In this document: positions 16,856-60,549 of the stretch, one piece after another | Layout of the letters: each line of letters opens with the position of its first letter | How positions within the stretch are numbered: the first letter of the stretch is position 1 | Assembly (NCBI GenBank): GCA_000405225.1 | Contig: ASMP01000001.1 | Span: forward strand, 892-64,891 | DNA length: 64,000 bases | Source of the DNA: Nanoarchaeota archaeon SCGC AAA011-D5 | GTDB lineage: Archaea; Nanobdellota; Nanobdellia; Pacearchaeales; GW2011-AR1 | Direction: 5' to 3' | Made by a program: the position numbers and the translations under genes | The notes under the pieces: generated by a model | What the model saw: only the letters and a program-made list of their open reading frames with translations | What the model was told of the DNA's origin: nothing | Databases searched by the model: none

Positions 16856-16946
16856 TTCTTTTTTGTCGCTAAAAACTGTATTATACTACAGCAATTGTTA
16901 AAAATGAGTAACATCTCCTAATATAAATAAAAACCTATATCAAAGC

Positions 16947-17501
16947 ATGATAACTTATACCGATATCTATGAGGCGGCAAGAAAAGAGAGGTACTCTGAA
17001 CAGTTGCAGTCCTTAGGAAAAAATTTTGTTGAAGAAGTTGCAGAATATCTAAAAGATAAAAAAGAAGTGGCCTCGAAAGAAGATTACGTTTTTTCAGATG
17101 CCATAGCAAAAACTAAAAAACAGCTGGAAAATGCCGTAACGCTTTTTAACGAGTTAATGCTCAGAAGGAGAAAAAAAATCCTTTCCCTTGTTCTGATAGC
17201 TGCAGAAACAGGGATTTCAAAGCAAGATTTTGAAAACATGCTGAGTTTTGAACGCGAAATGTTCGAGGAAATGATGAAATGCATTGACTATACGGACAAA
17301 AAAGTTAAGGAGATTCTTAACGGCAAAAAACAGACGGATGACAAAAATGAACTCATAATATTCAGAACAGGTGTGGAGGAGTTCATGGATTCGGAGGGAG
17401 AAAAGCTTGGACCATTTGAAAAAGGCCAGATGGCAAATATTTCAAAAGACATAGCAAAGATACTTATTGATGACGGCAAGGCGGATATCGTGGAGAAATG
17501 A
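16947..17501 (+). CDS. GINS-like replication protein (Gins51/Gins15 type), tentative
   Basis: N-terminus IYEAARKERYSEQLQSLGKNFVEEVAEYL and C-terminus GEKLGPFEKGQMANISKDIAKILIDDGKADIV resemble the A and B domains of archaeal GINS51; assignment from memory of motif patterns only. Confidence 0.4.
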   Translation: MITYTDIYEAARKERYSEQLQSLGKNFVEEVAEYLKDKKEVASKEDYVFSDAIAKTKKQLENAVTLFNELMLRRRKKILSLVLIAAETGISKQDFENMLSFEREMFEEMMKCIDYTDKKVKEILNGKKQTDDKNELIIFRTGVEEFMDSEGEKLGPFEKGQMANISKDIAKILIDDGKADIVEK

Positions 17502-17523
17502 TCTGCAAAAAAAGAAAAAGTTA

Positions 17524-17685
17524 TTTCTTCAGGGCCTTGTCAATCTCGGGCCTGTTAAAACCTACGATTATCTTTTCGTTTATCTCTATCTCTGGCACGT
17601 CCATCTGCCCGCTCTTCTCTATCATCTCTTCGGCGTCCTTCGCGTTCTTCTCCACGTTTATCTCCTCGTACTTCACATTGTTTTT
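17524..17685 (-). pseudogene. remnant of a glutaredoxin/NrdH-like gene (C-terminal 54 codons only)
   Basis: Between TAG (17686-17688) and TAA (17521-17523): KNNVKYEEINVEKNAKDAEEMIEKSGQMDVPEIEINEKIIVGFNRPEIDKALKK, which matches the C-terminal two-thirds of small glutaredoxins. The CxxC-bearing N-terminus is missing, and two in-frame stops lie immediately upstream. Confidence 0.6.
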
Positions 17686-17751
17686 CTATTGACATTCCTA
17701 GATACTGCGACGCTTCTTTTGGTATATCAATTGCAGGATCTACTAAAGAAT

Positions 17752-18654
17752 CTACAGGGTATATAATTTATTAAGAAGTCCTGATCTTGAGGGGTGTCTC
17801 AATTTTCTTAGGGCTTTTGCTTCTATCTGTTTAATTCGTTCTCTTGTACATTCGAAGCTAGTACCAACTTCTGCTAGTGTATGCTGACTGCCGTCGTCAA
17901 GACCAAACCTCATTCTAACAACTTTTTCCTCTCTTGGTGCAAGAGTCTCTAAAACTTTTTTAATTTGATCTGAAAATTCTGCGTTGAATCTTTCTTTGCG
18001 CTGCGTTAAATATTCTCGAACTCCATTATCCTCCAATAGTAAGAAACCGTCTGCTAACCTTTTGTAGACGTCTAGTTCAACTCTACGAAAGGCTCTATTA
18101 AATGCTTTTTCCGCAGTTCCTACTGCTCGCCTTGTTCCCATTCTATCGTAAGTTTCTCTCAGACTTTTATACAGCATGGGCAATATAATATCTTCAGTTT
18201 CTGGTAATCTCGTTTTCTCCCCAAATACTGCTCTGAGAAGCCTTTCTGCAGGTGATAGTTCATCTGGTTGACTGTAACTGAATATGCGACCAAGTCCCGT
18301 GTCAGTATAAATGAGCTTGTTTATCCTAGGTTTGAAAATATCTTCATCTACAGCTTCGTAGACTGTTTTTTCCCCTTCTTTGTCAATCAAATTAACATTT
18401 GGAAGACCTTCTGCTTGTCCTAGAGTTGCTAAATATAAATGTATGGCATTTCTATACCTATTACTCAATTTTAATGCTTCTCTGTAAAATTCTACAAGAG
18501 GATCTTTCCATTCTGGAGAACGCTTCCTAACAATTAGTAGTGCCGTCGGCTCTTTAACACCCCACTTCTTCTGAATGTATTTAGAACTAACATGACTCAA
18601 GTAGCTTAGTGCAACATCTCTCTCTTGTACTTCTGTCAGTCTGCGTTTCGACAT
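17752..18654 (-). CDS. protein with C-terminal bacterial sigma-70 region 4 (RpoD-like) domain and unrecognised N-terminal ~230 aa
   Basis: C-terminus [54 protein letters not shown] is nearly collinear with RpoD regions 4.1-4.2. Start chosen at ATG 18654 (MSKRR), preceded by GGAGTGAT 4 nt upstream; the ORF track extends to 18687. Confidence 0.8.
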
Positions 18655-18686
18655 TATTATCACTCCATATTCAAAGAAAAGAAGCA

Positions 18687-18694
18687 TTTATAAA
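18687..18694 (-). promoter_or_regulatory. TATA-box-like TTTATAAA upstream of the sigma-4 domain gene
   Basis: Palindromic TTTATAAA 33-40 nt upstream of ATG 18654, followed by the Shine-Dalgarno-like GGAGTGAT (18659-18666). Confidence 0.35.
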
Positions 18695-18889
18695 GCTTAC
18701 CATTTTAGCTACTATAGAGTTACAATCAGAGTTTAACTATAGTGTAGAAATATCCTTCTTTTATCTTAATTATTTCAGAGAAAACAGCATCCTAGTTCGG
18801 CTCTCTTTTTCCAAGCTCTTCTAAATATATTCCTGCTATACTTCTGCATTTCAGGCAACCTAAGAATTAGCTAAATATAAAAAAGAAAA

Positions 18890-18961
18890 AGCCTGTGAGG
18901 GGAGTTGAACCCCTGACCTACGCATTACAAGTGCGCCGCTCTACCACTGAGCTACACAGGC
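18890..18961 (-). tRNA. tRNA-Thr (anticodon UGU)
   Basis: Cloverleaf: acceptor GCCTGTG/CACAGGC, D-arm GCTC-AGTGGTA-GAGC, anticodon stem GCGCA/TGCGT with loop CTTGTAA, T-arm AGGGG-TTCAACT-CCCCT. Confidence 0.9.
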
Positions 18962-19018
18962 ACATTTAAAATAGGTAAGAATCAGTTTAAAAGATTTCTT
19001 ATTTATGCTAACTGAATC

Positions 19019-20092
19019 TTAAAGACTTTTATAAGCATTCAGGAGAAGATCTTCTGTTTCTTCCCACCCTATGCAGGAGTCGGTTATAGAGGTGCCATAT
19101 CTTAGTTTTTTCGCATCAAAATTTGCAAGATTGTGGGGAATGAGTTGCCCGCCTTCATTTAAATTAGATTCAATCATTATCCCAATTATGTCATTATTGC
19201 CATTTTTTATCTGCTGGATGACATTCTCAAAAACCTTTGTCTGTTTTCTATGGTCTTTATTTGAATTTCCATGGCTGCAGTCAATCATTATTTTCGGAGA
19301 AAGTTGATGGGCCTTAAGCTGAAGCTGGGCTTTTCTGACATTATTTTCATCATAATTTTCTTTGTTTTCACTTCCCCTAAGAACAATGTGAGTATAAGAA
19401 TTTCCAGAAGTGTTCACAATGCAGGGAATTCCCAAATCATTTATTCCCAAGAATGAGTGTTTCTCTCTTGCAGACAATATAGCATTTACGGCAACCTGAA
19501 CGTTTCCTTCTGTGTTATTTTTGAATCCGACAGGCATTGAGAGCCCGGAAGCCAATTGCCTGTGCTGCGGTGATTCAACTGTTCTTGCACCTATTGCTGC
19601 CCAGGAAACGAGATCTGAATTATACTGTGGCGTAAATGTTTCCTGATATTCTGTAGCAGAAGGCAATCCGATTTCTGCATTACTTAGCAAAAACTCACGG
19701 GAAAGATGCAGTCCAAGATTTATGTTACTTGAGCCATTAAGATCTGGATCATAGATTAAACCTTTCCAGCCAATGCTTGTCCTAGGCTTTTCGAAATAAG
19801 TCCTCATCACGATTAAGAATTTGTCTGAAATTTTGCCTGACAACTCCCCAAGCCTTTTAGCATATTCTTTGGCTGATTCAATATTATGGATTGAACATGG
19901 TCCAACAATCACCATAATTCTGGAGTCTTTTCCGTCCAAGATATCTTCTATGCTCTTTCTTCCTTGAAGGACTGTTTTTCTTGCTTTGCTTGTTCTTGGG
20001 AGTCTTTCTCTTAATTCTTTAGGAGAAATCAAAGTTTTATATTCAAGAATACGTTGGTCCACTATTCCATTTGAATCAGTTGTTAAAGCCAT
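19019..20092 (-). CDS. aroG: 3-deoxy-7-phosphoheptulonate (DAHP) synthase, class I (AroG/F/H type)
   Basis: IVGPCSIH, KPRTSIGWKGLIYDP, GLSMPVGFKNNTEGN, IMIDCSHGNS motifs of bacterial class I-alpha DAHP synthase; 357 aa. Confidence 0.9.
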   Translation of the reverse strand: MALTTDSNGIVDQRILEYKTLISPKELRERLPRTSKARKTVLQGRKSIEDILDGKDSRIMVIVGPCSIHNIESAKEYAKRLGELSGKISDKFLIVMRTYFEKPRTSIGWKGLIYDPDLNGSSNINLGLHLSREFLLSNAEIGLPSATEYQETFTPQYNSDLVSWAAIGARTVESPQHRQLASGLSMPVGFKNNTEGNVQVAVNAILSAREKHSFLGINDLGIPCIVNTSGNSYTHIVLRGSENKENYDENNVRKAQLQLKAHQLSPKIMIDCSHGNSNKDHRKQTKVFENVIQQIKNGNNDIIGIMIESNLNEGGQLIPHNLANFDAKKLRYGTSITDSCIGWEETEDLLLNAYKSL

Positions 20093-20235
20093 TTTAAATT
20101 AAAAGAGATTTTAGAATTAATTAGCTTTGCTAATTATAATACCAAAAATAATTTTTTTTCTGAAATATCATGTTTGAGCTACAATATTGATATATTTAAG
20201 TTTTGTTATTATGGAATTTTTGTCTGAAGTATTTC

Positions 20236-20775
20236 TTATTTGAGCTCTTTCTCAACCTTGAAAACGCGGATTTCACAAAGGGATAAAGGATAAATCTTTT
20301 TCAGCTTAAGGCTTAAGGGCTTTTGTATTTTTCCCTGGATTAATTCCTCAAAGACTGTTCTTGTGTCCTTGCTTTTGAGATAGTTTATAATTTCTTCCCT
20401 GGCTTTTTCCCTGAGCGCTTTTCTTACAGCCCTTGAAACCTTTTTCCTTGTTATCAAAAAGAACTTTACCTTTACCCTTGAGTCTTTGGTATCTGCAGAA
20501 AAAGAATCCTCCACATAATTTGTCCCTTTCCTGATCATTCTTCTGAGAAAGTAAGGCAAAATTACAAACTCTTTTGGATAAGCAGAAGCCTTATCTCCCT
20601 CGACTTTTACCTCCATGTCTAGAAGAACGTTTTTTCCTCTGAGAAATCTCGTTAAATCGTATTTTATCGTTCTTCCATTCAGCTCATTGAGATTATATGC
20701 ATACAGTTGTGTTTCTTTTTTCAGAATTGGCATTTCCACGTCAAAAAACCTTTGTTTTCTTTTTGCCTCTGCCAT
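20236..20775 (-). CDS. rps3ae: 30S ribosomal protein eS1 (S3Ae)
   Basis: FFDVEMPILKK...GRTIKYDLTRFLRGKN...VKV pattern and ~180 aa size typical of archaeal S3Ae. Confidence 0.85.
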   Translation of the reverse strand: MAEAKRKQRFFDVEMPILKKETQLYAYNLNELNGRTIKYDLTRFLRGKNVLLDMEVKVEGDKASAYPKEFVILPYFLRRMIRKGTNYVEDSFSADTKDSRVKVKFFLITRKKVSRAVRKALREKAREEIINYLKSKDTRTVFEELIQGKIQKPLSLKLKKIYPLSLCEIRVFKVEKELK

Positions 20776-21157: not shown

Positions 21158-21499
21158 TTATTTTGATATTAAAAACAGAATTCCAAGAATTGCAGTTCCT
21201 ATAAATGGAGGAATTCCAAGGTCCAATATTCCAACATTTAAAATGCCTATAAATATGCTTAATATCCCTAAAAATACCTTCTTTCCTTTGGCCCCCATTG
21301 AACTAGTTTCTACACTTCTCCCAGGTTCAGATCTAAATGTACTTTGAAAGCTTATTGAAGAAAGTATAATTATAATCCCCCATACAATCAAAAAAATTCC
21401 TAGGATTGAATCTGATATAGAAAAATCAGAATAGTTAAAAAATTTATTTGTAGAGAGAAATAGCAAGCCCAATCCAATTAAAATATTCAATAACCTCAT
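21158..21499 (-). CDS. hypothetical integral membrane protein
   Basis: Four hydrophobic helices. The ORF track extends to 21595, but that extension reads through tRNA-Val, so the internal ATG (MRLLNILIGLG) at 21499 is used. Confidence 0.4.
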   Translation of the reverse strand: MRLLNILIGLGLLFLSTNKFFNYSDFSISDSILGIFLIVWGIIIILSSISFQSTFRSEPGRSVETSSMGAKGKKVFLGILSIFIGILNVGILDLGIPPFIGTAILGILFLISK

Positions 21500-21538
21500 A
21501 ATTCTGCTTAATTCTTTTAACTTCTTAAATTTTATGTA

Positions 21539-21609
21539 TGGCCCTGCCCGGAATCGGACCGGGGCTTTGTCCACGTCAAGGACATGTTCTGCCATTAGAC
21601 TACAAGGCC
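21539..21609 (-). tRNA. tRNA-Val (anticodon GAC), with atypical D-stem and T-loop
   Basis: Acceptor GGCCTTG/CAGGGCC, anticodon stem TGTCC/GGACA with loop TTGACGT, T-arm CCCGG-TCCGATT-CCGGG. The T-loop has C where the near-universal U55 sits, and the D-stem needs a bulged A. Confidence 0.6.
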
Positions 21610-21648
21610 TTTAAAAAAGAAACTTATGAAAATATTTAAATATGATGC

Positions 21649-21903
21649 TTGCCAAATAAAAACATGAACGGCTATAGAAGGGGTGGCGGAATTACTTGGT
21701 TACTTTTAATTCTTTATCTGGTTTTTGGACTTTATTTCATCAATTATGCCCTAAATTATTTTATCGTTCCTCAGGCAATCAAAACAACACTAGACACCTA
21801 CAACAAATGGATAATTTTTGTTGGTGGAGTTTTGATAATAATTGGAGCCATAAACCACTTCAGACTTAGTAGATATATAAAAAGATATAGATCCGGATAT
21901 TAA
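21649..21903 (+). CDS. small membrane protein (two TM helices)
   Basis: 84-aa ORF; helices ITWLLLILYLVFGLYFI and WIIFVGGVLIIIGAI; basic C-terminus. Confidence 0.4.
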   Translation: MPNKNMNGYRRGGGITWLLLILYLVFGLYFINYALNYFIVPQAIKTTLDTYNKWIIFVGGVLIIIGAINHFRLSRYIKRYRSGY

Positions 21904-21957
21904 CAATTTTCTTTTTGCCTTGATAAAATTTATATACGTAATTCCCATCTTTCCTTT

Positions 21958-23823
21958 ATGCTTGAAAAGAGGGGCAAAAGAGGGACTCTGCCCATGGTGA
22001 GACAGATTAGAGGTCAGCTGAGCATTTTTATAATAATCGCGATTGTTGTCGTTGCCCTGATTTTTGGATACTTTTTTTTGAGGGGAACTATTTCTGTGCG
22101 CGGAATACCTGGAAGCATACAACCTGCATATACTGGTTTTTTGTCATGTCTGGAAGAGGACACGAACTCAGGAATATCTGTCTTGGAGAGCCAGGGGGGA
22201 TATATAGATCTCCCTGAGTTTGAGCCAGGCTCTGAATATATGCCTTTTTCATCACAACTGAATTTTGCAGGAAGTCCTGTTCCTTATTGGTATTATGTCT
22301 CGGGAAACAATATCCAGAAGGAGCAAGTTCCCACAAAAGGCGACATGGAAGACCAGCTTGAAAGTTTTATAGAAGAAAGGCTGAGAGACTGTAACCTGAG
22401 AAGTTACCATGATGAAGGGTTTGCAATCAGCATGCCAGATAAACCAAAGGCAGATGTGAACATAAAAGATGGTGAAGTGGAAGTGAATCTGAAACTGGAT
22501 CTTACAATAGAAAAAGAAAATGATACGGCATTGATAAGAAACCACAAAATATCGCAGCCGTCAAAACTCGGAAAGCTTTACGATTCTGCAAAAACAGTCT
22601 ATGACGAAGAACAGAAAAATCTTTTTTTAGAAAGATATGCTATTGACATCTTAAGGCTGTATGCTCCTGTAGATGGAGTAGAGATTACATGCGCTCCCCT
22701 TGTGTGGGATGCCGAAGAGGTTTTTGATGGCTTACAGGAAGCTATAGAAATAAATACTGCCGCACTAAAAAACAAAGGAAGCCGGGAAGATTATTTTGCA
22801 TTGAATTTCCCGGTAGATGAAGAAGTTCGTTTTTTGAATTCTAAAGACTGGCCAAACGGCTTTGAGATTTCTCCCGCAGACGGCAGGATTTTAATTTCCA
22901 GCCCTGTTGGAAATCAGCCAGGAATAGGATCTCTTGGATTTTGCTATGTTCCTTACCATTTCGTTTATAACATGAGATATCCTGTAATGATTCAAGCTTA
23001 TGATGGAGAGGAGATTTTCCAGTTCCCTGTTGCAGTTGTCATACAGGGAAACAATCCGCGGGAGTTCCTTAACGCTAGTGCTTCTGAAGATATTGTTCCA
23101 GAGCTCTGCAAATATAAAAATACAGAAGTCCAGATAAACACCTATGACACTTCTTTAAGGCCAGTGGATGCACAAATTTCCTACGAATGTTTCGGAAATA
23201 AGTGTGATATTGGAACCACAGAATCTGGAAAAATGACAGAGAATTTCCCACAGTGTGTAAATGGGTTTGTTTCTGCAAAAGCCCCTGGCTTCAAGGATAC
23301 CAGGTACTTATTTTCGACAGTGCAGCCGGGTTCTTTAGACATAATTCTTGACAGAGTCTATGAAACAGATATTGAACTGCTGCTTGATGGAAAGCCTTAC
23401 ACAGGAGAGGCTGTGATTACCTTTTCATCGGGTTATGCAACAGAAACCATCATTTATCCTAACCAGAAAACAGTAAAACTCGGAGAAGGGCAACATGAAA
23501 TTCAGGTCCAGATATTTAGAAATTCTTCAATAACAATAGGAGCAACAACGAAAGAACAGTGTATTGAAGTCCCAAGAGGAATTTTAGGAGTTTTCGGTTT
23601 GACAGAGGAAAGGTGTTTTGATATTCAGATACCGGGACAGGTGATTTCAAATGCGCTTTCAGGCGGCGGAAAGCAATCTCTTTATGTTCTCGAGTCTGAA
23701 CTGATAAAGGGAAATGCGCTTGAGATAAATGCGAGAAGCCTTCCTATTCCCAAGACGATAGAACAGGTCCAGGATAACTATCAATTGTTTGAGCAAAATC
23801 CGCTGGAGGCTGAGTTTAAGTAA
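21958..23823 (+). CDS. membrane-anchored extracellular protein with class III (prepilin-like) signal-like N-terminus; function unknown
   Basis: 621-aa ORF; the internal Met at 21994 gives MVRQIRGQ-LSIFIIIAIVVVALIFGYFF; the rest is soluble and Cys-containing with no family recognised; 5 nt upstream of the giant gene. Confidence 0.6.
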   Translation: MLEKRGKRGTLPMVRQIRGQLSIFIIIAIVVVALIFGYFFLRGTISVRGIPGSIQPAYTGFLSCLEEDTNSGISVLESQGGYIDLPEFEPGSEYMPFSSQLNFAGSPVPYWYYVSGNNIQKEQVPTKGDMEDQLESFIEERLRDCNLRSYHDEGFAISMPDKPKADVNIKDGEVEVNLKLDLTIEKENDTALIRNHKISQPSKLGKLYDSAKTVYDEEQKNLFLERYAIDILRLYAPVDGVEITCAPLVWDAEEVFDGLQEAIEINTAALKNKGSREDYFALNFPVDEEVRFLNSKDWPNGFEISPADGRILISSPVGNQPGIGSLGFCYVPYHFVYNMRYPVMIQAYDGEEIFQFPVAVVIQGNNPREFLNASASEDIVPELCKYKNTEVQINTYDTSLRPVDAQISYECFGNKCDIGTTESGKMTENFPQCVNGFVSAKAPGFKDTRYLFSTVQPGSLDIILDRVYETDIELLLDGKPYTGEAVITFSSGYATETIIYPNQKTVKLGEGQHEIQVQIFRNSSITIGATTKEQCIEVPRGILGVFGLTEERCFDIQIPGQVISNALSGGGKQSLYVLESELIKGNALEINARSLPIPKTIEQVQDNYQLFEQNPLEAEFK

Positions 23824-23828
23824 ATAAA

Positions 23829-26800
23829 ATGCCAGAAGAAAAAAATATTTTGACGGGAAAAAAGTATATGTTAGTAAGAAAACGCGGTAAGTATCTTAAA
23901 AGAAATTCAGTTAAAAGCTTAATTAACATAAGATTTATCCTTTTAATATCTATTTTTTTGGCTTTAACATTATTTTTTGTTTCATCTTTACCCATAACAA
24001 CTGCAGCATCTTCTTATGTAAGGAGTTCTCCTGCATATACTTTTGGGCATCAAACAGCCCCTTTCATAGGAGGACAGCAGTTCCCTTTATTTGACAGGAG
24101 CCAATGCCAGGCAGGCCAGGATTTCATTCTTCAGGTTGATCCTTTAGGATGCACACCATCTGTTATCAGAAGCGACTTGCTGGAAGATCAGGAAGTCGTT
24201 GTTTTCTGTCCAATATCTGCAACACAGCTGAACCCTTTGATTAAAATCAAAGACATAGACTATATGATTATAACTCCAAAAGATCTTCCCCGCGAGGTTT
24301 TGACAGTTGGCTATTATCCTGCAAGGGCTGCACTTGGAAAATGGGATCCTGACATTAAAACCCCAATTCTTGGAAATATAGGATATGCAACAATTGTTCT
24401 TAGAAGACAGCCTAACGAGTCTGCTATGCCTGATTTTGTCCAAGGAAATCTGACGGCAAAGCTGGTTTATGACATAGACAATGCATTTGGAACAGGAAGA
24501 GCTGTCTATTACCTAAGGCAAATGAGTGACGAAGAATGGAACAGGGGTTATACTGCTTATGGCTTCTGGGATGGAAGAGGATATTTGCGATTAGAAGGAG
24601 CAGACAACACAGGAGCGACGATAGGAGTTTATTCTGACAGAGACCAGACAGGAAACGCAAGGCTTGGAGAAAAAACAAAAATAGCCAACCTTGATCTGGA
24701 AAAAGGAAAAACATCGAGAGAAGTATTTCTTCCAGGATTCAATTACTGCATGGGTGGAATTGAAGTAAAACTAGAAGATTTTGAAAATCCGGACACAAGG
24801 GCAAGGCTAAGAGTTGATTCTGAGGTTATTGAAATGAAAACAGGAGAGAAATTCCTGGAAAACAAGTGCCTTGTAAAAAGCATATCAAAGCAAGGAATAA
24901 ATCAGAAAGTCGAGGTCTCTTGCCAGGAAGACGAAAGAAGAAACCCTTTCCTCTTAAGAATAAGCCCTAAAGTCAGCCTTTCTATAAATGGGGAAGCTAA
25001 AGAATACGGTGCTGGAGATTTATTGTATGATGACAAAGATAATTCCTATTACTTGGGATTTGTGGGAAGCAGCGGACAAACAAACTCTCTGGGAGAAGTA
25101 TATATAAGAATTATTTCAATACCAAAATCCAGAGGAGGAATAAGAACGAGCTTAAGCGAAAGCGATCTTTCTTTTGTTGCCAGTTATGACAAAAAAGTTT
25201 CTGGAAAAAACACAAAAGGAAGCGTTATTGAGGAAACTAAAGAATTTTTTGAAGGCATTGTGGCACAATTATCGCTTGTAGAAAATAAATTCTTCCGGGG
25301 AGCAGACCTAAAGACATTGACATATTCTGATTCGGAAAAACAGATTTTTGGAAAAACCCTTTCCATAAAAGGATATTCCGGAGCACCAGATACAGACATT
25401 TCCCAGATGCCTAAAGAAGTCAGGGAAAATTATGAAAATGCGATGAAAGATTATCTAGCAATAAAAGAGAGCTTCTCGGGAGACAGGTATCCTCCAAATG
25501 ATATAAGGACTCTTGGGGAGCAGGCTCTTACAGAAACTATAAGGCTTGCAAAAAGTCTTGAGCAGAGAAGTACGATATTACAACTTTGCAGAGAATTTTC
25601 TGAAACTTACGGTTCAGCTCCGCCAGAAATATCAACGATATGCGATAATGGATATCTTTTATCAAACACACAGACTTCTGAAAGAAGCGTAGTTATCAAC
25701 GGAAAAACACATATACTTGCCTTTGAAGGAGTAAGGGAGCCAAGCTTTGATGAATTTGGTCTTGAGATTATTGTGGCTTCTTCTGAAGGGCCAGGGGAAT
25801 ATGACCTTTCAAAAGGCGAGAGGGTTTATATCAACAGCACATCTAATGAGTATATACAACTGATAAATCTGGAGGAAGATTCTGCAATTCTTGTTACAGG
25901 CCTTTTAGGAAGAAATATAAGAACATCACAAAGGCTGAAAATTGGAACCGAAGAAACATTTGAGAGCAGGTACAGCTTTAGAATAAAGGAAATACATCTT
26001 CAAAAAGTTGCAAAGGTTTCCCTAAATCCAAAAATTGATTATGCCAGGACAAATGCGACAATCAACTTCAAAATTGGAATAGAAAAAAGAGCAATACAAT
26101 TAAGCCCTGAAAAAACAAAGGAAAGAATACAAACCCTGAACAAAACCATTGAAAAATGGACAAAAATAAATGATGGTTTGGGAAAAGTCGTCAAGGCCGG
26201 AAAGGCAGCATGTCTTGCGACAGCAGGAGCTTTAACAATAAAGAACTTCTTCTCGAATCTTGGAGGAAAAGGAATTGCAAGGCAAACAGTGATGAAAGCT
26301 CCAGGCACAGGATGGTATGACAAGTGCCAGAAAGATGTAAAGGATGTCAAATACGAATCTGTGGAAGCCTGTCTTTTGGCAAATTCTGATTCAATAGAAT
26401 CCTCTGTCAATTCATATGCCGATGCAATGAAAAAACAGAATGATGAAATAAAAAAACTTGAAGAAGGAATTTCCGATACAAGATTCCTTGGAGAAAAGGT
26501 TGTTAATACAGATGCGCTTGCTCAAAAACTCATGAATGACCCTGCTTTTATATCAGATATAAATTCCTGCAAAAATGATATTCAGATAGTTGTTGGTGGA
26601 AAAACTATAAGCGCTGTTGATGTTTATCCCATTAATCCAAACACAACAACGATCAGCCAGGCAAGAGCTCTGCAGTTAAATTGCAGGCTTCTTTCTTCAA
26701 GTGATACTGATGTACAAGCAATAGCAAAAAGTAATGTTGAAAAAACCTTTGGAGAGATTTATTCAAACTCAAGAACAGAGGCAACAAGGCTGACCTTTAA

Positions 26801-29800
26801 CTCACAATATGGAATCTCCCCAATAGTTGGCTCTACAAAAAAGCTTAAAGAATTTCCTCTTACAGATGTAAAAACCTTTGGCCAGGTAAAAAGCAAATTC
26901 AGTGGTGCAACAATTTCTGATGATACATATGTAACTACTTTTATCGACCAGACAGATGGCAAACAATATCTTATCACATTGACAAATGAATATGTTGTAA
27001 GCCAGACTTATCTCATAGGATCTGGCGGTGTTCTTAGTGTTGCAAATTCAAACAATGTAAACCATCTGGGAATAGGATTTAAAAAATACGATTCAGCAAC
27101 TTACAGCAATACATACATAAGTCCCAAAGTTAGATATTATGAGACAGATCCTTATCAAGGATTCCCTTCTGTGGTTCCTTTTGATACAAAGAATGGATGG
27201 TATGCTGCAGTAAAATCCAATGTGCCTGCGCTTGGAGGACTGAAAGCTTACGATGATTCTGGCAGAGTTTCCAGTTTCTATGTCTGCAATGTCGGACCAA
27301 ATGGCAGAGAGGAAAATATTGGAGGAGATGATATCTGCAGAGGATTCTATCCTGGAGCACAGCAGCCTCCAGATTTTCCCGGCTTAACAGAGCAGGAATC
27401 AAGAACTAAGATGGAGCAGGCTCAGAGGGCAATACAGCAAGCCCAGAACGAATACAAGGATGGAGTTAAAGAAGTAACAATAACTGCCGGTGGTCAAAGT
27501 CAAAGAATTAAAGTTGGAGAGCCTGCGGCAAATATTCCAGGAATACAATGCGAAGACTTTATGTCTCCTTCTGATTGCAATATTATGTTCAATGTTTGCG
27601 ATCCTTTCGTCTGTCCTTCTAGCAGATGTGATCTTGGAGGAGCATATCCTGTCAAAGATGTCATACAATCGGGAATAGCTGGAAGCATTGCACTCTGCCT
27701 TCCAAACTGGCCGGAAATTAAAGTTCCTATCTGTGTTTCAGGAGTGCATGCAGGACTTGAAGGATACAAAAGTGTTCTTAGCTCTTACCAACAGTGTTTG
27801 CAAACCAGCCTAGATACAGGACAGACAGTTGGAATCTGCGATGAACTGAACAGCATTTACATGTGTGACTTTTTCTGGAGACAAGGACTTCCTTTGATAA
27901 AATATGCGATACCTAAGGTAGTGGGAAGCGTTCTCGGACAAAACGTTAGAGGAGGAGGAGAATATCTTGGAGTTGCAGATGCCGCGTCTAATGCACAGAA
28001 GTCAATAGATTATTTCAGCCAGTATTATGCCGCGAATTCTTTTGCAGCTTTCAAGGCAAGATCTTTGGAAAGTGTGGGAACAGATATCTGCAGGAACTGG
28101 GTTTCACTCACAGGGCCAAAGGGAAATCTTTTTGACGCTTTAATATCTCCGGATTCACCGCCGCAGTTTTATGGAAGATTTGAGGAAATTCCTTACACTA
28201 CTGCAACAAATCCACCTGCGTCTCAGTACAAAGTGTTCTATCATATTTATGCCGGAAAAGATCTGCCTGCTTATTATCAAGTATATCTTCGAGGAACAGG
28301 CGGTTCCTTTTACCAGGACACTGCATTCAGGCGCCCAGTCGCATCAGGATTCATAAAAACAGGAGATTTCAAATCAGAAACTATAGATTTCAATGCTCCG
28401 TCGGGATACAAAGAGCTGTGCATAGTCGTAAACAACCAAGAACAGTGCGGCTTTAAACAGGTAACAACTGATTTCGGAGTGAATTATCTCTCTGAAAAAT
28501 ATGTTCAACAGCAGGCTTCCCAGAAAGACATAAAGTCAGAAGCAGAATGCGTTTCCGGAAATCCTAGCGCTTTCAGTTTCCTGAATCCCAATCTGCAGGC
28601 AGGTGCAGAAGAGGCATTGAATCCAGCAATATACAATAGAGGAATAACAAGAGTTTGCTCTACAGAGAATCCCGGAAAAACCAGTGACCCTCTGATGAAT
28701 ACGAAAAATCAGAGATGGAAAGATGTTGGAAACTGCGGGAGTGCAAACTTGAAGTGCTGGCTTGATACGGACAGTGTTAATAAGGTTATCAAAAATGCAA
28801 ATATACTGAACGAGACACTTGGAGTAATTGGAGATAGAGAAAAGCAAATCATAGATGCGTTGACGAAAGAAGGAAAGTACCTTGATAATTTTGATTCTTT
28901 CCAGAAAGAACTGGAAGGTCTTCAAGATTCAGAAATTATTTCGAAGATAAATGAAAACATCGGCAGGGTTTACAGAAACAACCAGAAAGGTTACCTTTAT
29001 TTTAAAAGAGGAAATGCCTATGGAAATCAGGCTCGTTTAACATACAGAATTCTCCTAGACACACAGAACTTACCTATAACACAAAGAGATTCAGAACCTT
29101 TAAATCCTATAGAAGAGCCAACAGAAACTCCTGAACAACCAAAAACAGGAGAAGAACCAACAGAAGCAGCAAGATGTGAAAAAGAATGTGGAGTTGTTTG
29201 TAGTAAGACAGAATGTGAATCTTTAGGATGTACTTTTGTTCCAGATCCAGTATTTAACAAAATATTTCCTCTTATTTTTAATAACTGTATACCAAAAGAA
29301 CAACCAACAGAACCAACGACAGAAGCAATAACACAATTCAAGAAGACCTTGGGAGAAAAGATAATCAAACTTGCGAAAGAGAAAGAACAGGAAAGAACAG
29401 ATCCCGACTACTCTACAGTACAAGCAGACACTGGAGCAAAATCTTTTGAATGCCTGGCTTTGCAGGTTGCTTTGATAGAAAGTAGCATTAGGCAATGTAA
29501 GAAAACACCCGCAAATGGAAACAACCCTCTTTACTGTGAGGGAGATAGCAGTGAAACAATCTCTGGTGATGCCTTTAAAACTGGTGGAGATTCTGGAAGC
29601 AGAGGAATCATGCAGATAAATACAGCATTTAAGAGGAAAGACAATGGTCAAAGTGTAGGACATTGTGGGAGTTACGATCTTTCATCCAACCGTGAAGAAT
29701 GCAGGACACAACTTTCATATTTTGAGACTAATGTGAATACTGGACTTAATCTTTTAATTGAAGGATATGATAAAGATGAAAAAAGCTTTGATTGTAATGG

Positions 29801-30548
29801 AAAGAAATATTCAGGATGGGCTAGAGCCTTAAGAAATTATAATGGTTGGGGATGTACAGGGAATACCAATTATGTAGAGAATGTTATATCTGCAAGAGAT
29901 GATGTTGCAAGACTTTTTCCAGAAGTTTGTGGGGAAACCAAGGAGGTATCTGTATCTGTCTCTCCCGTTACTTATTCAAAGGCAGAACTTATGGGGAGAA
30001 GTTCTACTATAAAAGGATTAACATCTGAAACTATTAAGGCCTTTTTTTCTATGAAAGCCGCAGCTGAAACAGATGGATTTATTCTAAATGCAGTATCTGG
30101 ATATAGAACTTTCAACAGGCAATTAGATATATGGAATGATAAATTTGCATCGTTTAGTGGCACAGATCAAGAAAAGGCAACAAAAACGGCTGAGTTTTCT
30201 GCTGTTCCAGGAATGTCCCGCCACCATTGGGGAACAGAAATAGACATAAATTCAGTTGATCCTTCTTACTGGCAGAATAATGTGGCCTTATATGAATGGC
30301 TTGTTTCAAATGCTCCAACTTATGGATTTTGCCAGTCCTATGATGAAGATAGAGGTGTAGTCAAAACAGAAAAATGGCATTGGAGTTACAAACCAATATC
30401 AAAACAGCTAACACAGCAATATTCCGATACAATAATTGCACAGGACATAACCGGTTTAGGTATTTCTGGAGAAACTACAATAATCTCTAACTTTGACTTC
30501 TACAAAAGAGGTTCTATCAGCGACATAAACCCCGATTGTTTATCTTAA
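23829..30548 (+). CDS. giant (2,239 aa) membrane-anchored surface protein with C-terminal lytic transglycosylase (SLT/GH23) and VanY/M15B peptidase domains
   Basis: Uninterrupted 6.7-kb ORF with N-terminal anchor IRFILLISIFLALTLFFVSS. SLT motifs: ALQVALIESS, RGIMQIN, ALRNYNGWG. M15B motifs: SGYRTFNRQ, SRHHWGTEIDIN, EKWHWSY. Confidence 0.85.
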   Translation: MPEEKNILTGKKYMLVRKRGKYLKRNSVKSLINIRFILLISIFLALTLFFVSSLPITTAASSYVRSSPAYTFGHQTAPFIGGQQFPLFDRSQCQAGQDFILQVDPLGCTPSVIRSDLLEDQEVVVFCPISATQLNPLIKIKDIDYMIITPKDLPREVLTVGYYPARAALGKWDPDIKTPILGNIGYATIVLRRQPNESAMPDFVQGNLTAKLVYDIDNAFGTGRAVYYLRQMSDEEWNRGYTAYGFWDGRGYLRLEGADNTGATIGVYSDRDQTGNARLGEKTKIANLDLEKGKTSREVFLPGFNYCMGGIEVKLEDFENPDTRARLRVDSEVIEMKTGEKFLENKCLVKSISKQGINQKVEVSCQEDERRNPFLLRISPKVSLSINGEAKEYGAGDLLYDDKDNSYYLGFVGSSGQTNSLGEVYIRIISIPKSRGGIRTSLSESDLSFVASYDKKVSGKNTKGSVIEETKEFFEGIVAQLSLVENKFFRGADLKTLTYSDSEKQIFGKTLSIKGYSGAPDTDISQMPKEVRENYENAMKDYLAIKESFSGDRYPPNDIRTLGEQALTETIRLAKSLEQRSTILQLCREFSETYGSAPPEISTICDNGYLLSNTQTSERSVVINGKTHILAFEGVREPSFDEFGLEIIVASSEGPGEYDLSKGERVYINSTSNEYIQLINLEEDSAILVTGLLGRNIRTSQRLKIGTEETFESRYSFRIKEIHLQKVAKVSLNPKIDYARTNATINFKIGIEKRAIQLSPEKTKERIQTLNKTIEKWTKINDGLGKVVKAGKAACLATAGALTIKNFFSNLGGKGIARQTVMKAPGTGWYDKCQKDVKDVKYESVEACLLANSDSIESSVNSYADAMKKQNDEIKKLEEGISDTRFLGEKVVNTDALAQKLMNDPAFISDINSCKNDIQIVVGGKTISAVDVYPINPNTTTISQARALQLNCRLLSSSDTDVQAIAKSNVEKTFGEIYSNSRTEATRLTFNSQYGISPIVGSTKKLKEFPLTDVKTFGQVKSKFSGATISDDTYVTTFIDQTDGKQYLITLTNEYVVSQTYLIGSGGVLSVANSNNVNHLGIGFKKYDSATYSNTYISPKVRYYETDPYQGFPSVVPFDTKNGWYAAVKSNVPALGGLKAYDDSGRVSSFYVCNVGPNGREENIGGDDICRGFYPGAQQPPDFPGLTEQESRTKMEQAQRAIQQAQNEYKDGVKEVTITAGGQSQRIKVGEPAANIPGIQCEDFMSPSDCNIMFNVCDPFVCPSSRCDLGGAYPVKDVIQSGIAGSIALCLPNWPEIKVPICVSGVHAGLEGYKSVLSSYQQCLQTSLDTGQTVGICDELNSIYMCDFFWRQGLPLIKYAIPKVVGSVLGQNVRGGGEYLGVADAASNAQKSIDYFSQYYAANSFAAFKARSLESVGTDICRNWVSLTGPKGNLFDALISPDSPPQFYGRFEEIPYTTATNPPASQYKVFYHIYAGKDLPAYYQVYLRGTGGSFYQDTAFRRPVASGFIKTGDFKSETIDFNAPSGYKELCIVVNNQEQCGFKQVTTDFGVNYLSEKYVQQQASQKDIKSEAECVSGNPSAFSFLNPNLQAGAEEALNPAIYNRGITRVCSTENPGKTSDPLMNTKNQRWKDVGNCGSANLKCWLDTDSVNKVIKNANILNETLGVIGDREKQIIDALTKEGKYLDNFDSFQKELEGLQDSEIISKINENIGRVYRNNQKGYLYFKRGNAYGNQARLTYRILLDTQNLPITQRDSEPLNPIEEPTETPEQPKTGEEPTEAARCEKECGVVCSKTECESLGCTFVPDPVFNKIFPLIFNNCIPKEQPTEPTTEAITQFKKTLGEKIIKLAKEKEQERTDPDYSTVQADTGAKSFECLALQVALIESSIRQCKKTPANGNNPLYCEGDSSETISGDAFKTGGDSGSRGIMQINTAFKRKDNGQSVGHCGSYDLSSNREECRTQLSYFETNVNTGLNLLIEGYDKDEKSFDCNGKKYSGWARALRNYNGWGCTGNTNYVENVISARDDVARLFPEVCGETKEVSVSVSPVTYSKAELMGRSSTIKGLTSETIKAFFSMKAAAETDGFILNAVSGYRTFNRQLDIWNDKFASFSGTDQEKATKTAEFSAVPGMSRHHWGTEIDINSVDPSYWQNNVALYEWLVSNAPTYGFCQSYDEDRGVVKTEKWHWSYKPISKQLTQQYSDTIIAQDITGLGISGETTIISNFDFYKRGSISDINPDCLS

Positions 30549-30559
30549 ATAGAAATGTA

Positions 30560-30643
30560 TGCGGAGACTAGGATTCGAACCTAGGTAAGCACTAAGCTAA
30601 CAGGTCCTAAGCCTGTCCCGTTTGACCACTCCGGCATCTCCGC
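30560..30643 (-). tRNA. tRNA-Leu (anticodon UAG)
   Basis: Class II tRNA: acceptor GCGGAGA/TCTCCGC, anticodon stem ACAGG/CCTGT with loop CTTAGGA, long variable arm, T-arm CTAGG-TTCGAAT-CCTAG. Confidence 0.9.
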
Positions 30644-34208: not shown

Positions 34209-35204
34209 CTATATTCCAAAAATCCTTCTCATAAAATTTTTTTTGTTTCTTTTTATTCTGTAATAAATAACTAAAATCGCTAATGCAATAAGGATAATCA
34301 GTGCTGCTGCAAATACTTTTTCTCTTATTGTTGTTTTTGAGGAAATAATCTCAAAATTATCAGAGGAGCTTGCAGTTTTATCATTATAGATAGCTTTGAC
34401 ATAAAGGACATATTTTCCTATTTTGGTATTTTTGGGAATAGGAATTCTTTTTATGAAGCTGATTTGTGTTTCTATTGCCAGCGATTCTGTTTGTTTAAAT
34501 ATTTCATTTCCCTCGTAATCCCTGATTATGTACTCTATAATAACATCTTTTCTTTCATCAGACACTCCGAGATTAAACAATCTCATTTCTGCCAGAATTT
34601 CTCCGCCCGGAAATATGTCTTTATAACCCCTCAATATTTCCGCTCTTACATCAAGCAGAATGCCTTCTGACTCCACCTCTATAGCAATTAAAACTTCTTT
34701 TCTTATGTCTCCGGAACTTAAGATGATCTTCCCAAGATACAAATCAGGAATTGTATCTTCTCCGACTACAAGGTATATTGATATTGTTTTTGATTCTCCC
34801 GGATTCAAAACAATTATATCCTCCACCTTTACGACAAAGTCCTTAAAGAGATTCTCTATCACAATGTTCATACTCCTGGTCCCGTTATTTGTTATGGTGA
34901 TGTTCTCTGTTTTTACCTGGCCAGGCTTTAATGTGACCGAGATTTGGCTTTTGTCTATTGAGAATAAAGAAACTCCACCTCCTCCTCCTCCTCCTCCACC
35001 GCCAGAAGGAGTTTCTTCTGCAGAGCTTGCAATTGTTACTGAAACAGCAACATTTGAACTTGTTGCGTTTCCAGTTATAGCGTCCCCAGTTACCGCATCT
35101 CCAGTTAAAGTATCTCCTGCCACAGTGCCAATATTTGAATACGCAACAAGAATAATTACTATAATCAAGGAAACAGAAAAAAATTCTTTAGCCCTCTTTT
35201 TCAT
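34209..35204 (-). CDS. secreted, C-terminally anchored surface protein (CARDB/S-layer-domain-like beta modules)
   Basis: N-terminal signal/anchor, repeated TGDA(V/I) motif, Gly10 run, two beta-sandwich-like modules (NPGESKTISIYLVV..., ...), C-terminal TM AAALIILIALAILVIYY + basic tail. Confidence 0.55.
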   Translation of the reverse strand: MKKRAKEFFSVSLIIVIILVAYSNIGTVAGDTLTGDAVTGDAITGNATSSNVAVSVTIASSAEETPSGGGGGGGGGGVSLFSIDKSQISVTLKPGQVKTENITITNNGTRSMNIVIENLFKDFVVKVEDIIVLNPGESKTISIYLVVGEDTIPDLYLGKIILSSGDIRKEVLIAIEVESEGILLDVRAEILRGYKDIFPGGEILAEMRLFNLGVSDERKDVIIEYIIRDYEGNEIFKQTESLAIETQISFIKRIPIPKNTKIGKYVLYVKAIYNDKTASSSDNFEIISSKTTIREKVFAAALIILIALAILVIYYRIKRNKKNFMRRIFGI

Positions 35205-35248
35205 TAAATAGTATGGGAAAAGACATATTTAAAATTTGTTGGAATTAA

Positions 35249-35836
35249 CTACCGTCTTCTCTTTTTTATATTTACAGCAACCAGAATTATCCCTAAAATG
35301 ACTAAAGCTAAGACAATGTAAACAGTATAATTCTTACTTGTTTTTTGCCCGTAAACCGCGCTCTCTGTCGGCTCCCCAACAACCTCAACAGGAATTCTCT
35401 GGGTGAAAGCGCTTGCAACAGTGAAAAATCCCTCTCCCCCACCAGCACCCACCTGAAGAAATGAAGCCTCCATATCATAAACCTTTCCAGGCTCCGCGTT
35501 TTCAGGGATTTTTACCTCTAGGTTGACTGTGACATCATCACTTCCCAAAGGAACAAAATAATCTGTGTTTGAATCTATTATTCTTGCTATTTCATAACCT
35601 TTTGTTATGTTTGCTCTCAGCGTAATGTTTTCATCACCAACCATATTTTGAAGCCCTAAGGAAAAAACTACAGACTCCCCTGAACCCAGCTTAAGAGGGT
35701 TTGTGCTCCAATAAGGCGTTGAGACTCCCGCTGCAGAGGCAGCAGAAATTGTTAAAACTGCTAATAGGAAAAAAGCCAAATGGTTTTTAATGCTGAAATA
35801 TCTTTTTCCGTAGTTGTAAATTTGATTAGTTAACAT
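35249..35836 (-). CDS. secreted, C-terminally anchored small surface protein
   Basis: Signal peptide AFFLLAVLTISAASAAG, one beta-sandwich-like domain, C-terminal TM IVLALVILGIILVAV + KKRRR. Confidence 0.5.
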   Translation of the reverse strand: MLTNQIYNYGKRYFSIKNHLAFFLLAVLTISAASAAGVSTPYWSTNPLKLGSGESVVFSLGLQNMVGDENITLRANITKGYEIARIIDSNTDYFVPLGSDDVTVNLEVKIPENAEPGKVYDMEASFLQVGAGGGEGFFTVASAFTQRIPVEVVGEPTESAVYGQKTSKNYTVYIVLALVILGIILVAVNIKKRRR

Positions 35837-35893
35837 TTTTTATCTTTTTTCTTACTCTTTTATTTCATATCAATAGTTTTCTCTTTTTTATAT

Positions 35894-36832
35894 TTATACT
35901 ATTACCTCTACGACCCATGACCCGTAAAACGATGAAGAGTAAGACTGTGCTGTTGCATCCTGGGGAACTCCCCTCAGACAGAAAAATGCTTGCTCCTGTC
36001 CGGAAGTTTGGTTTACGAAATTCAGCGAGTTATTTCCCTTGGTGAAGTTTGTTCCGTTTAGCTGTTTAGATGTTGCATTTACCATTGTTGAAGCATTTAT
36101 TCCGGCGCCGCACCCGTCTGTTACGTTTCCTACGGTGAAATTGTTTGCGAATATGAACTGCGTTGTAGTTGTTTCTCCCCGAAGATTATAAGCTGTTGTA
36201 TTTATTGTTCCATTTGCAGAGTTTCCTGTATTGTTTAAAAGTATAGGGTCGTTGTTGGAACTGAAGTTTGTCGCACTCAGGTTAAGTGTGGGCCATGTCA
36301 ATGCCGAAGGACTAAGAACCATTGCAGTCAGAAGATTATATGTGAAGTTTGTCGTCGAGTTCTCTGTACTTGCCTCGCTGTTGTCTCTTGCAGAAACATT
36401 GATTGTCCATACACCAAGCTCATCAAAATAATACATGCTTACGTTGCATGTGAACATTTGTCCGTTGCCACCCGAACCAATGTTTGCGCAGGAAGAGTTA
36501 TCCCTGTTTGACTCTCCTGTCCTATTGAACCTTGCTCTTGCACTGCTTAAATTTATGTTTCCAGAGCCATCTGTATCATTCACAGAAAAATTCAGCAGAA
36601 CAGACCGGTATCCCGATTCCAGCGGATTCTGGGATGAAACAGCCAGGACAAAAGGAATTGTCGGGGCTGTGTTTCCTACGGTAATGTTTAAGGATGTTGT
36701 GCCTGTTGTTGCCTCTCCTGTGATTCTTGCCCTGAAATCTTTCCAGAAATCAGAAAAGATATTTGCCGAGATTATTGGGATAATTAGCAAAGATATCATC
36801 AAATAAATAACTAAAATCTCTCCTCTTTTCAT
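35894..36832 (-). CDS. secreted sequon-rich protein; stand-alone paralogue of the last extracellular domain of the 1,820-aa protein
   Basis: 312-aa ORF with signal peptide. From NTAPTIPFVLAV to SSSFYGSW it aligns residue-for-residue with the region NAAPTIPFVLAV...SSSFYGSW of ORF 36890..42352. Confidence 0.7.
   Translation of the reverse strand: MKRGEILVIYLMISLLIIPIISANIFSDFWKDFRARITGEATTGTTSLNITVGNTAPTIPFVLAVSSQNPLESGYRSVLLNFSVNDTDGSGNINLSSARARFNRTGESNRDNSSCANIGSGGNGQMFTCNVSMYYFDELGVWTINVSARDNSEASTENSTTNFTYNLLTAMVLSPSALTWPTLNLSATNFSSNNDPILLNNTGNSANGTINTTAYNLRGETTTTQFIFANNFTVGNVTDGCGAGINASTMVNATSKQLNGTNFTKGNNSLNFVNQTSGQEQAFFCLRGVPQDATAQSYSSSFYGSWVVEVIV
35914..36672 (-). repeat. dispersed repeat copy A (paralogous to 37501..38262)
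   Basis: Includes runs identical to copy B: 36068-36132 = 37655-37719 (65 nt) and 36507-36613 = 38107-38213 (107 nt), separated by strongly diverged blocks. Confidence 0.85.
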
Positions 36833-60543: not shown

Positions 60544-60549
60544 TTAATT

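Follow-up and report, generated by a model that had tools for sequence, protein, structure and literature searches.

The 64,000-nucleotide stretch of contig ASMP01000001.1 from Nanoarchaeota archaeon SCGC AAA011-D5 (to be referred to as the window) carries, on the + strand, two adjacent genes for large proteins of mostly unrecognisable sequence. The first gene (21958..23823) encodes a protein of 621 residues, p1, and the second (23829..30548) encodes a protein of 2,239 residues, the giant. The listing of open reading frames (ORFs) and the program ARAGORN confirm both ORFs, the gap of 5 nt between them and the flanking tRNA genes, all of which had been reported by a sequence-only reading of the region. 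The tRNA genes are tRNA-Val(GAC) (21539..21609) on the 5′ side and tRNA-Leu(TAG) (30560..30643) on the 3′ side, both on the − strand. A third gene, the first of the cluster, is located between tRNA-Val and p1 and encodes a small two-helix membrane protein of 79 residues (21664..21903, + strand). These genes form a conserved operon, and its possible function at the cell envelope is the subject of this report.

The pairing of p1 and the giant is strict. A survey found 84 p1 loci from different species, and 80 of them are testable, with DNA that continues past p1. In all 80, the next gene on the strand of p1 encodes the core of a giant. The stop codon of p1 overlaps the start of the giant by 4 nt (a gap of −4, ATGA) in 37 of these loci, and in 66 the gap does not exceed 50 nt, which is typical of translationally coupled subunits. 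Co-occurrence and synteny of the pair had been named beforehand as a test, and the 80 loci bear out a conserved, co-transcribed module. The small membrane gene (65–90 residues) is detected by tblastn upstream of p1 at about 55 of the 84 loci, with a median identity of 43%, and its translation in the window resembles that of the 66-residue gene at the same position of locus L001. Direct reading of the sequence finds a TATA-like box about 26 nt 5′ of the ATG of the small gene at 21664 (TTTAAATA, 21635..21642, + strand), and another about 26 nt 5′ of the ATG of p1 at 21958 (TTTATATA, 21929..21936, + strand). Both are putative promoter elements, and the position of the second suggests a leaderless transcript.

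Relatives of p1 are known from 404 or more species-level genomes. Of the 80 listed, almost all carry the label Pace-, Woese- or Nanoarchaeota, as do the homologues in general (Pacearchaeota, Woesearchaeota or Nanoarchaeota). The operon appears to be vertically inherited and widespread in DPANN archaea of the Pacearchaeota type, and apparently confined to them. Two of the loci have bacterial labels. In the first (L002, JGI Ga0369713_1000448, 'Patescibacteria group bacterium'), the operon is flanked by the archaeal genes S3Ae, L44e and TFIIB, and the label is wrong because these neighbors are archaeal. The second (L015, DATKUW010000047.1, 'Bacillota bacterium') carries the same p1–giant pair.

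The surroundings of the operon are also conserved. The order that recurs in distant genomes is S3Ae, L44e, tRNA-Val, the operon, tRNA-Leu, TFIIB, S8e, LSM and a gene for a protein with the metallo-β-lactamase (MBL) fold. Of 23 related loci, 17 have the same tRNA-Val on the upstream side of the operon, and 15 have the same tRNA-Leu on the downstream side. The tRNA bracket is informative about neither modularity nor mobility. The same two tRNAs flank the operon in most relatives and, like the housekeeping neighbors, recur in distant genomes, so that the bracket reflects ancestral synteny rather than a past integration.

A few irregularities were observed in these surroundings. In the window, a 145-residue ORF (21158..21595, − strand) overlaps tRNA-Val and is probably spurious. 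At locus L004, the interval between TFIIB and S8e (15887..20712) has an insertion that encodes a DDE transposase, a PD-(D/E)XK protein and two DNA methyltransferases, which shows a breakable point, just 3′ of the operon, in an otherwise fixed synteny. At locus L047, ARAGORN reports a 94-nt 'tRNA-Pyl (cta)' (21520..21613) beside tRNA-Cys, at a place that tRNA-Arg(tct) occupies in related loci. Rather than a pyrrolysine tRNA, it is probably a tRNA that contains an intron or has been miscalled.

The tRNA genes on both sides of the pair, together with a match of the VanY region of the giant to a tape-measure family in PHROGs (PHROG 16823, E value 7.4e-11), could be read as signs of an assembly chimera or of mobile or viral cargo such as the remnant of a prophage tape-measure or tail lysin. 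Phage tail proteins often join GH23 with M15 or M23 domains, and tape-measure proteins and tail lysins such as Pb2 of T5 have a long, largely helical body with a wall-lytic end, a layout that they share with the giant. We find such an origin scarcely credible. The conservation of the tRNAs and housekeeping neighbors together with the operon across the lineage contradicts it, and the GC content is unremarkable (0.39–0.40 across the gene pair, as compared to 0.34–0.41 elsewhere in the window). No integrase was found in the scanned window ORFs. A mobile island between the tRNA genes was rejected, as these tRNAs belong to the conserved synteny. A tape-measure origin was rejected as well. The PHROG match is limited to the VanY domain, no relative of p1 or of the giant is present in the viral contigs of IMG/VR, and no fold match is found in BFVD below an E value of 1e-3. 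The window locus is chromosomal and apparently vertically inherited.

An assembly chimera is excluded, because an ORF of 2,239 codons in DNA of 39% GC is not a product of chance and because the full architecture recurs in independent assemblies. The giant of one of them (P0002) is 64% identical over 100% of its length and has the VanY domain, and that of another (L005) carries both tail domains. A bacterial origin of the contig, the other artefact to be checked, is excluded by the archaeal markers TFIIB, S3Ae, L44e, Gins51, TFIIE-alpha, RadA, tRNA-intron endonuclease and deoxyhypusine synthase. The window is archaeal, of the DPANN, Pacearchaeota type.

The p1 protein has 2,283 homologues, and no family match for it was found in Pfam, NCBIfam or PHROGs. 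The best 120 homologues are 606–648 residues long and 57–94% identical to p1, except for two shorter ones that resemble truncated calls. Ten Cys residues are invariant. The protein is organized as one N-terminal helix, an α/β region and three C-terminal β-sandwich domains. The only hydrophobic segment in the hydropathy scan is at the N-terminus, which reads ...MVRQIRGQ-LSIFIIIAIVVVALIFGYFF. The R-G-Q motif (residues 18–20) and the hydrophobic helix (residues 21–41) are encoded at 22009..22080 (+ strand). Across 60 homologues, the motif [KR][GAS]-Q-[VL]-[TS]-x-F-I-I-I-A is kept, with the Gln invariant. The elements follow one another in a fixed order, with a short basic stretch, [KR][GAS], the invariant Gln, [VL]-T-[IV]-F-I-I-I-A and a helix of 20 residues, and 19 of the 20 residues after RG/QL are hydrophobic or small.

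The sequence-only reading had assigned a prepilin-type signal to this N-terminus. The layout of R-G-Q followed by a helix is real, and the pattern of class III signals (FlaFind-type) fits 42 of the 60 homologues. The other 18 have Ser, Asn, Thr, Ile or Leu, and hence no charged residue, at the −2 position. The curated models, however, do not recognise it. The Pfam model Class_IIIsignal (PF04021) reaches only 9 bits against a cut-off of 23.7 (E value 1.7–2.5), and the archaellin and pilin models of NCBIfam give nothing significant, the one archaellin-model match having an E value of 0.096. In addition, no gene for a prepilin peptidase, a pilus ATPase or a platform protein was found in the scanned window ORFs, which cover most of those with at least 120 residues, or in four related loci (L001–L004), and no other class-III-like N-terminus was found in the window. 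The class III signal of p1 is therefore a hypothesis based on a pattern, and an uncleaved signal anchor is equally possible.

Other surface proteins of the window have Sec signals with C-terminal anchors, unlike p1. Three of them (2589..4184 on the + strand, 34209..36832 on the − strand and 42510..44189 on the + strand) are unannotated and have a Sec signal, a C-terminal hydrophobic helix and a basic tail.

The AlphaFold2 (AF2) model of p1 has a predicted local distance difference test (pLDDT) score of 68 overall, and the three β-sandwich domains in the C-terminal half are predicted with pLDDT of 85–93. In Foldseek searches, this model matches nothing more specific than the Ig-like type of stalk domain found in pilins, adhesins and SlaB, with template modelling (TM) scores below 0.2. 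The match to SlaB (8qox_B) has an E value of 8.6e-6, and with TM scores of 0.14–0.18 it reflects generic β-sandwiches. A profile of p1 has no match among PDB sequences. There is also no domain shared between p1 and the giant (hhalign probability 0.3%).

These features of p1 bear on the possibility that the operon encodes a fibre similar to the type IV pilus, in which a prepilin peptidase would process p1 as a large subunit of pilin type, or as an adhesin at the tip, and the filament would bear the giant. The basic n-region, [KR][GAS], the invariant Gln and about 20 hydrophobic residues that follow would suit such a subunit, and the best Foldseek matches of p1 include pilins and pilus adhesins. 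The pilins in question, however, are sortase pilins of Gram-positive bacteria, which have only the β-sandwich fold in common with p1. Together with the failure of the signal models, the missing pilus genes and the 18 homologues with no charge at −2, this makes a pilus-like fibre very improbable.

The giant also has a single hydrophobic segment, residues 36–54. It is part of an N-terminal region (residues 1–60, 23829..24008, + strand) with a basic n-region, an h-region and the sequence TAA/SS. A small-x-small site (VSA, ISA, here TAA/SS) is located just before the conserved Y-x-R-S with which the mature protein begins in 44 of 50 homologues. The sequence-only reading had described the giant as membrane-anchored. 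Its sole hydrophobic segment is built like a Sec signal that can be cleaved off, and the protein is therefore probably secreted, with no anchor of its own.

The region after the signal, residues ~61–1740 (24009..29048, + strand), is kept in all homologues and will be referred to as the core. It had been described as a stretch of no recognised family, and our searches agree. Four segments of the core give nothing in Pfam at E values up to 10, and nothing is found in NCBIfam or PHROGs either. A profile of the core against all PDB sequences returns coiled-coil noise to sigma factors and nothing else. The AF2 model of residues 541–1740 has pLDDT of 70.6, and Foldseek finds no match to it in the PDB below an E value of 0.05 or in BFVD below 1e-3. 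On the other hand, the family itself is extensive. An exhaustive phmmer search with residues 1101–1740 gives 1,070 clusters at 50% identity, 923 of them below 1e-30. Among the 150 clusters listed, the position of this module is constant in the full-length proteins, which have about 1,900–3,800 residues, and some shorter fragments are also present. Judged by these searches, the core constitutes a large and closed family. In one homologue (P0077), a Peptidase_M23 domain (residues 675–765) is inserted within the core. By sequence, the core is tolerant of insertions, and the tails can hold several lytic modules.

Thirty core Cys residues are shared by 90% or more of 50 homologues. Together with the ten in p1, they fit extracellular disulfides. 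Ten of those in the giant are invariant (C1241, C1250, C1257, C1262, C1267, C1290, C1302, C1323, C1337 and C1346), and all are found in a Cys- and Gly-rich module (residues 1237–1350, 27537..27878, + strand) that is the most conserved stretch of the protein. The module is predicted to be helical, with pLDDT of 50–70. The Cys-dense core of the sequence-only reading is thus real and the best-conserved part of the giant. Its 'hydrophobic stretches' are not transmembrane segments, as their hydropathy over 19-residue windows remains below 1.2, under even a lax threshold. Transmembrane or fusion-peptide-like segments in this region were considered and found to be unsupported for this reason. A 6-Cys mini-module, noticed at the same time, is present in a P/T/E-rich linker that follows the core (residues 1783–1820, 29175..29288, + strand). 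It is clade-specific rather than a feature of the family, as its Cys residues are found in at most 18% of homologues.

The tail of the giant contains two hydrolase domains, as had been claimed. The assignment of the second of them is solid, and that of the first is weaker. Residues 2064–2189 (30018..30395, + strand) match the VanY family of D-Ala-D-Ala carboxypeptidases (Pfam PF02557, peptidase family M15B) with 104 bits against a cut-off of 25 (E value 6.7e-30), over positions 4–131 of the 132 in the model. Solved structures of VanY and LdcB (5hnm and others) are matched with E values of 7e-13 to 4e-6. The zinc-ligand and catalytic motifs SxHxxGxAxD and ExxH are present as SRHHWGTEID and EKWH, aligned to the corresponding residues of 5hnm. 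This segment is, by its sequence, certainly a VanY/M15B domain, and its activity is a predicted one. The VanY and LdcB models of NCBIfam also match the tail, but the scores fall far short of what the more specific models (VanY-B/G, LdcB and VanXY) require, and the match therefore does not fix the substrate specificity. As in other VanY and LdcB enzymes, which are LAS zinc peptidases, the domain covers the whole Pfam model, including the zinc-ligand motifs. It differs from them in being the last domain of an archaeal exoprotein of 2,239 residues.

The domain before it (residues ~1865–2040, 29421..29948, + strand) appears to be a divergent member of glycoside hydrolase family 23 (GH23), similar to goose-type lysozymes and lytic transglycosylases. 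The GH23 motifs Glu-Ser, G-[ILVM]-M-Q and Y-N-G occur in the expected order as LIESS, GIMQIN and RNYNGW, and their Glu, Met, Gln, Tyr, Asn and Gly residues are invariant in 22 sequences. A profile of these 22 family tails aligns weakly to the goose-type lysozymes 3mgw, 4g9s and 153l (E values of 0.01–0.03). Compared to other GH23 enzymes (Pfam SLT, PF01464), the domain has additional Cys residues and an insertion, and it is under the Pfam thresholds. A canonical SLT domain was rejected for the giant of the window, as PF01464 gives no match to it at E values up to 10 and BLASTP of the domain against the canonical SLT domains of two homologues (P0077 and P0103) is not significant. The canonical SLT domains of other giants are, however, located at the same position as this domain.

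The tail is the variable part of the family. In 55 complete giant genes its length ranges from 1 to 906 residues. Of these tails, 24 have the GH23-like domain, and the VanY domain is limited to the closest relative. The payloads of other giants include canonical SLT, Amidase_2, M23, PT-HINT, LRR, DUF1615 and DUF2272 domains, belonging to at least eight Pfam families. In the homologue P0008, a pretoxin-HINT domain (residues 2186–2318) is followed by about 300 more residues, and a LAS-peptidase-like motif, SHANGYKVDL, is found upstream of it.

A conserved body with a hypervariable C-terminal tail is also the organization of polymorphic toxins (Rhs, contact-dependent inhibition (CDI) and PT-HINT systems). 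The giant could accordingly be an antibacterial weapon, with a conserved N-terminal module for delivery or presentation and a variable C-terminal effector that is released to kill competing bacteria and does not serve to hold a host. Some giants (P0008 and P0012) have the pretoxin-HINT domain, the payloads are of bacteriolytic enzyme types, and archaeal peptidoglycan hydrolases can kill bacteria, as reported by Strock et al. 2025 (PMC12352652), who find such hydrolases to be prominent in Nanoarchaeota. Several observations make this reading improbable all the same. There is no immunity-like gene or cassette array 3′ of the giant, where tRNA-Leu is located 12 nt past the stop codon and is followed by TFIIB. 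The missing immunity gene is a weak point, since murein-specific effectors need none in an archaeon. In addition, the giant of the window has no HINT or other release module and no known delivery domain (YD or filamentous haemagglutinin), and members with no payload occur. A single-copy, slowly evolving locus of the core genome is also unlike typical toxin loci.

The rate of evolution was measured as the median identity of relatives to the protein or region in the window. Among the neighbors of the operon, it is 91% for TFIIB, 73% for L44e, 64% for S3Ae and 62% for the MBL-fold protein. The value for p1 is 57%, that for FtsY is 53%, and that for residues 1101–1740 of the giant is 52%. Residues 60–540 and 541–1100 of the giant are less conserved (42% and 36%, respectively). 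Parts of the operon therefore evolve at about the pace of FtsY, which is much slower than is usual for exposed adhesins and S-layer proteins. Such constraint on p1 and on parts of the giant suggests a function that makes high structural demands and involves many contacts.

This conservation is of importance for the comparison with a two-component surface layer (S-layer), in which p1 would be the membrane stalk and the giant the canopy of the lattice, as in SlaB and SlaA of Sulfolobales (PDB 8qox; PMC10903991), and the enzymes would be accessory decorations. Several features agree with this. In both systems the genes are adjacent and encode a mid-sized, anchored β-sandwich stalk and a large secreted partner, and here the two genes are also coupled. 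The operon is single, widespread in the lineage and located among ribosomal-protein genes, both proteins are acidic (isoelectric points of 4.5 and 5.3), giants with no payload exist, and the p1 model has the match to SlaB described above. Decorating enzymes have a parallel in tetrabrachion of Staphylothermus, an S-layer protein that carries a protease. Other features do not. The SlaB match involves generic β-sandwiches, and pilins score equally. The giant matches neither SlaA nor any S-layer structure, by sequence or by fold, and it has a catalytic payload. The anchor of p1 is N-terminal, whereas that of SlaB is at the opposite, C-terminal end. Sequons for N-glycosylation are depleted in the giant, with 7 observed as compared to 18.2 ± 3.8 expected, and conservation, at the level of FtsY, is far higher than in the Sulfolobales pair and atypical of S-layer proteins, which tend to evolve rapidly. 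An S-layer is thus a possible though unlikely reading. Should the operon encode no more than an S-layer to which enzymes are attached, a major lineage would still have had its envelope proteins identified.

Giants of this kind have been noticed before. Castelle et al. 2021 (PMC8204110) described giant proteins with a transglycosylase domain (fam00969), mentioned that three genomes had shown them before, and suggested that they attach to the walls of bacteria. Vigneron et al. 2022 (PMC9723730) repeated the observation and proposed binding or degradation of the bacterial wall. As far as the passages on these proteins go, they are like the giant of the window in lineage, size class (up to ~3,000 residues), extracellular location and GH23/SLT domain. 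PF01464 is found in homologues of the giant, one of which bears the name 'transglycosylase SLT domain-containing protein'. From the lineage labels, the lengths and the SLT/GH23-like domains, the giant almost certainly belongs to the same family. The same passages describe the transglycosylase domain only. They mention no coupled partner of 610 residues, small membrane gene or VanY domain, and they are silent on the fixed chromosomal position, the likely secretion of the giant, the slowly evolving core of 1,650 residues and the variability or absence of the payload. A metatranscriptome paper on Woesearchaeota and a preprint on complete genomes of Nanobdellota do not mention the giant family. 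The family and its proposed role at the wall are hence already published, and the partner, the core and the exchangeable tip are additions. The earlier statement that no characterised system has this architecture is upheld, with the proviso that the family itself was on record in those passages.

The SPEARE proteins of Nanohaloarchaeum antarcticus, reportedly described by Hamm and colleagues in 2019, are said to be very large exported multidomain proteins of an obligate symbiont that combine adhesion or scaffold regions with hydrolases. They differ from the giant in carrying a protease and a nuclease and in being directed at archaeal hosts, as compared to the murein hydrolases found here, and our searches gave no sequence relationship.

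The reading that we favor, with a probability of roughly 0.5, is that of an envelope operon in which p1, tethered to the membrane, holds the secreted giant, and the core of the giant is a scaffold that displays a wall-lytic payload to bacterial murein. It would have three parts. The first is the small two-helix membrane protein. The second is p1, of about 610 residues, which would be held in the membrane by its N-terminal helix, either as an uncleaved anchor or after cleavage of a prepilin-like signal before the invariant Gln, and whose β-sandwich domains would project outward as a stalk. The third is the giant, of about 2,000 residues, which would be made in translational coupling with p1, exported by its cleavable Sec signal and kept at the surface by binding to p1. 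The disulfide-rich core of 1,650 residues may then be a rigid scaffold that presents the exchangeable C-terminal payload outward. In the window, this payload would consist of a GH23-like enzyme that cleaves the glycan strands, followed by a VanY-type D-Ala-D-Ala carboxypeptidase. The two may act on the wall of a bacterial neighbor or host, for attachment, local thinning of the wall or release of wall fragments. We infer a bacterial target because the archaeon gives no sign of murein synthesis, with no gene for it among the scanned window ORFs, and because the substrates of VanY do not occur in archaeal walls. An apparatus for attaching to, and breaching, a partner cell had been proposed by the sequence-only reading. 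The exported and conserved pair, with enzymes that have bacterial murein as their sole known substrate, agrees with it, but breaching goes further than these observations, as the payload is not universal.

Several points weigh against this reading. In two species (L072 and L041), the giant carries no payload, and many other tails have no recognisable hydrolase, so that the conserved function of the core cannot depend on wall hydrolysis. The GH23-like assignment in the window is based on motifs and an E value of ~0.01. 'Scaffold' is a default reading for a core whose fold matches nothing, and the most conserved segments of p1 (residues 222–259 and 299–341) are modeled with pLDDT below 50. Moreover, we know of no established bacterial host for any Pacearchaeota.

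A bolder reading gives the central role to the conserved parts. The small protein, p1 and the core might form an undescribed, essential and lineage-defining device that spans the gap between two cells, docks onto bacteria, cuts murein with exchangeable tips and obtains lipids, nucleotides or wall fragments that these archaea are unable to make. The disulfide-rich helical module would then be the functional heart, as a membrane contact or conduit, and the enzymes would be accessory. We regard such a device as possible though unlikely. If it exists, it would be the first molecular handle on a symbiosis of an archaeon with a bacterium.

Other genes of the window also have unusual features. An ORF of 1,820 residues (36890..42352, − strand) has an Ig-like Big_3_3 domain (residues 758–854), a C-terminal helix-turn-helix similar to region 4 of sigma-70 (residues 1787–1815) and lacks a signal peptide at its N-terminus. 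Such a DNA-binding tail on a giant protein is an oddity for an archaeon. A protein of 311 residues (17752..18687, − strand) has a clear Sigma70_r4 domain (E value 1.5e-15), likewise in an archaeal genome. The leucyl-tRNA synthetase (48337..50820, + strand) has the PF13603 editing domain (E value 3e-66), which is typical of the bacterial type and suggests that the enzyme is of bacterial origin in this archaeon. At 59359..61650 (+ strand), a DisA-type diadenylate cyclase (DAC and DisA-linker domains) is directly followed by a DHH/DHHA1 phosphoesterase, possibly a bacterial-type pair for the synthesis and degradation of cyclic di-AMP.

Few uncultivated archaea are as widespread as Pacearchaeota and Woesearchaeota. 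As the operon is widespread among them, has slowly evolving parts, is predicted to be exported and usually ends in enzymes for the bacterial wall, it is the most concrete candidate for an interface between these archaea and bacteria. The additions made here to the published giant family may be of use in three ways. The operon is a defined unit of three genes for joint expression, and the partner may be needed for function. The core of 1,650 residues, with no known fold, is a target for structural work. Finally, the domain types of the payload could predict the wall chemistry of the partner bacteria, an approach that Strock et al. 2025 (PMC12352652) took with other hydrolases of archaea.

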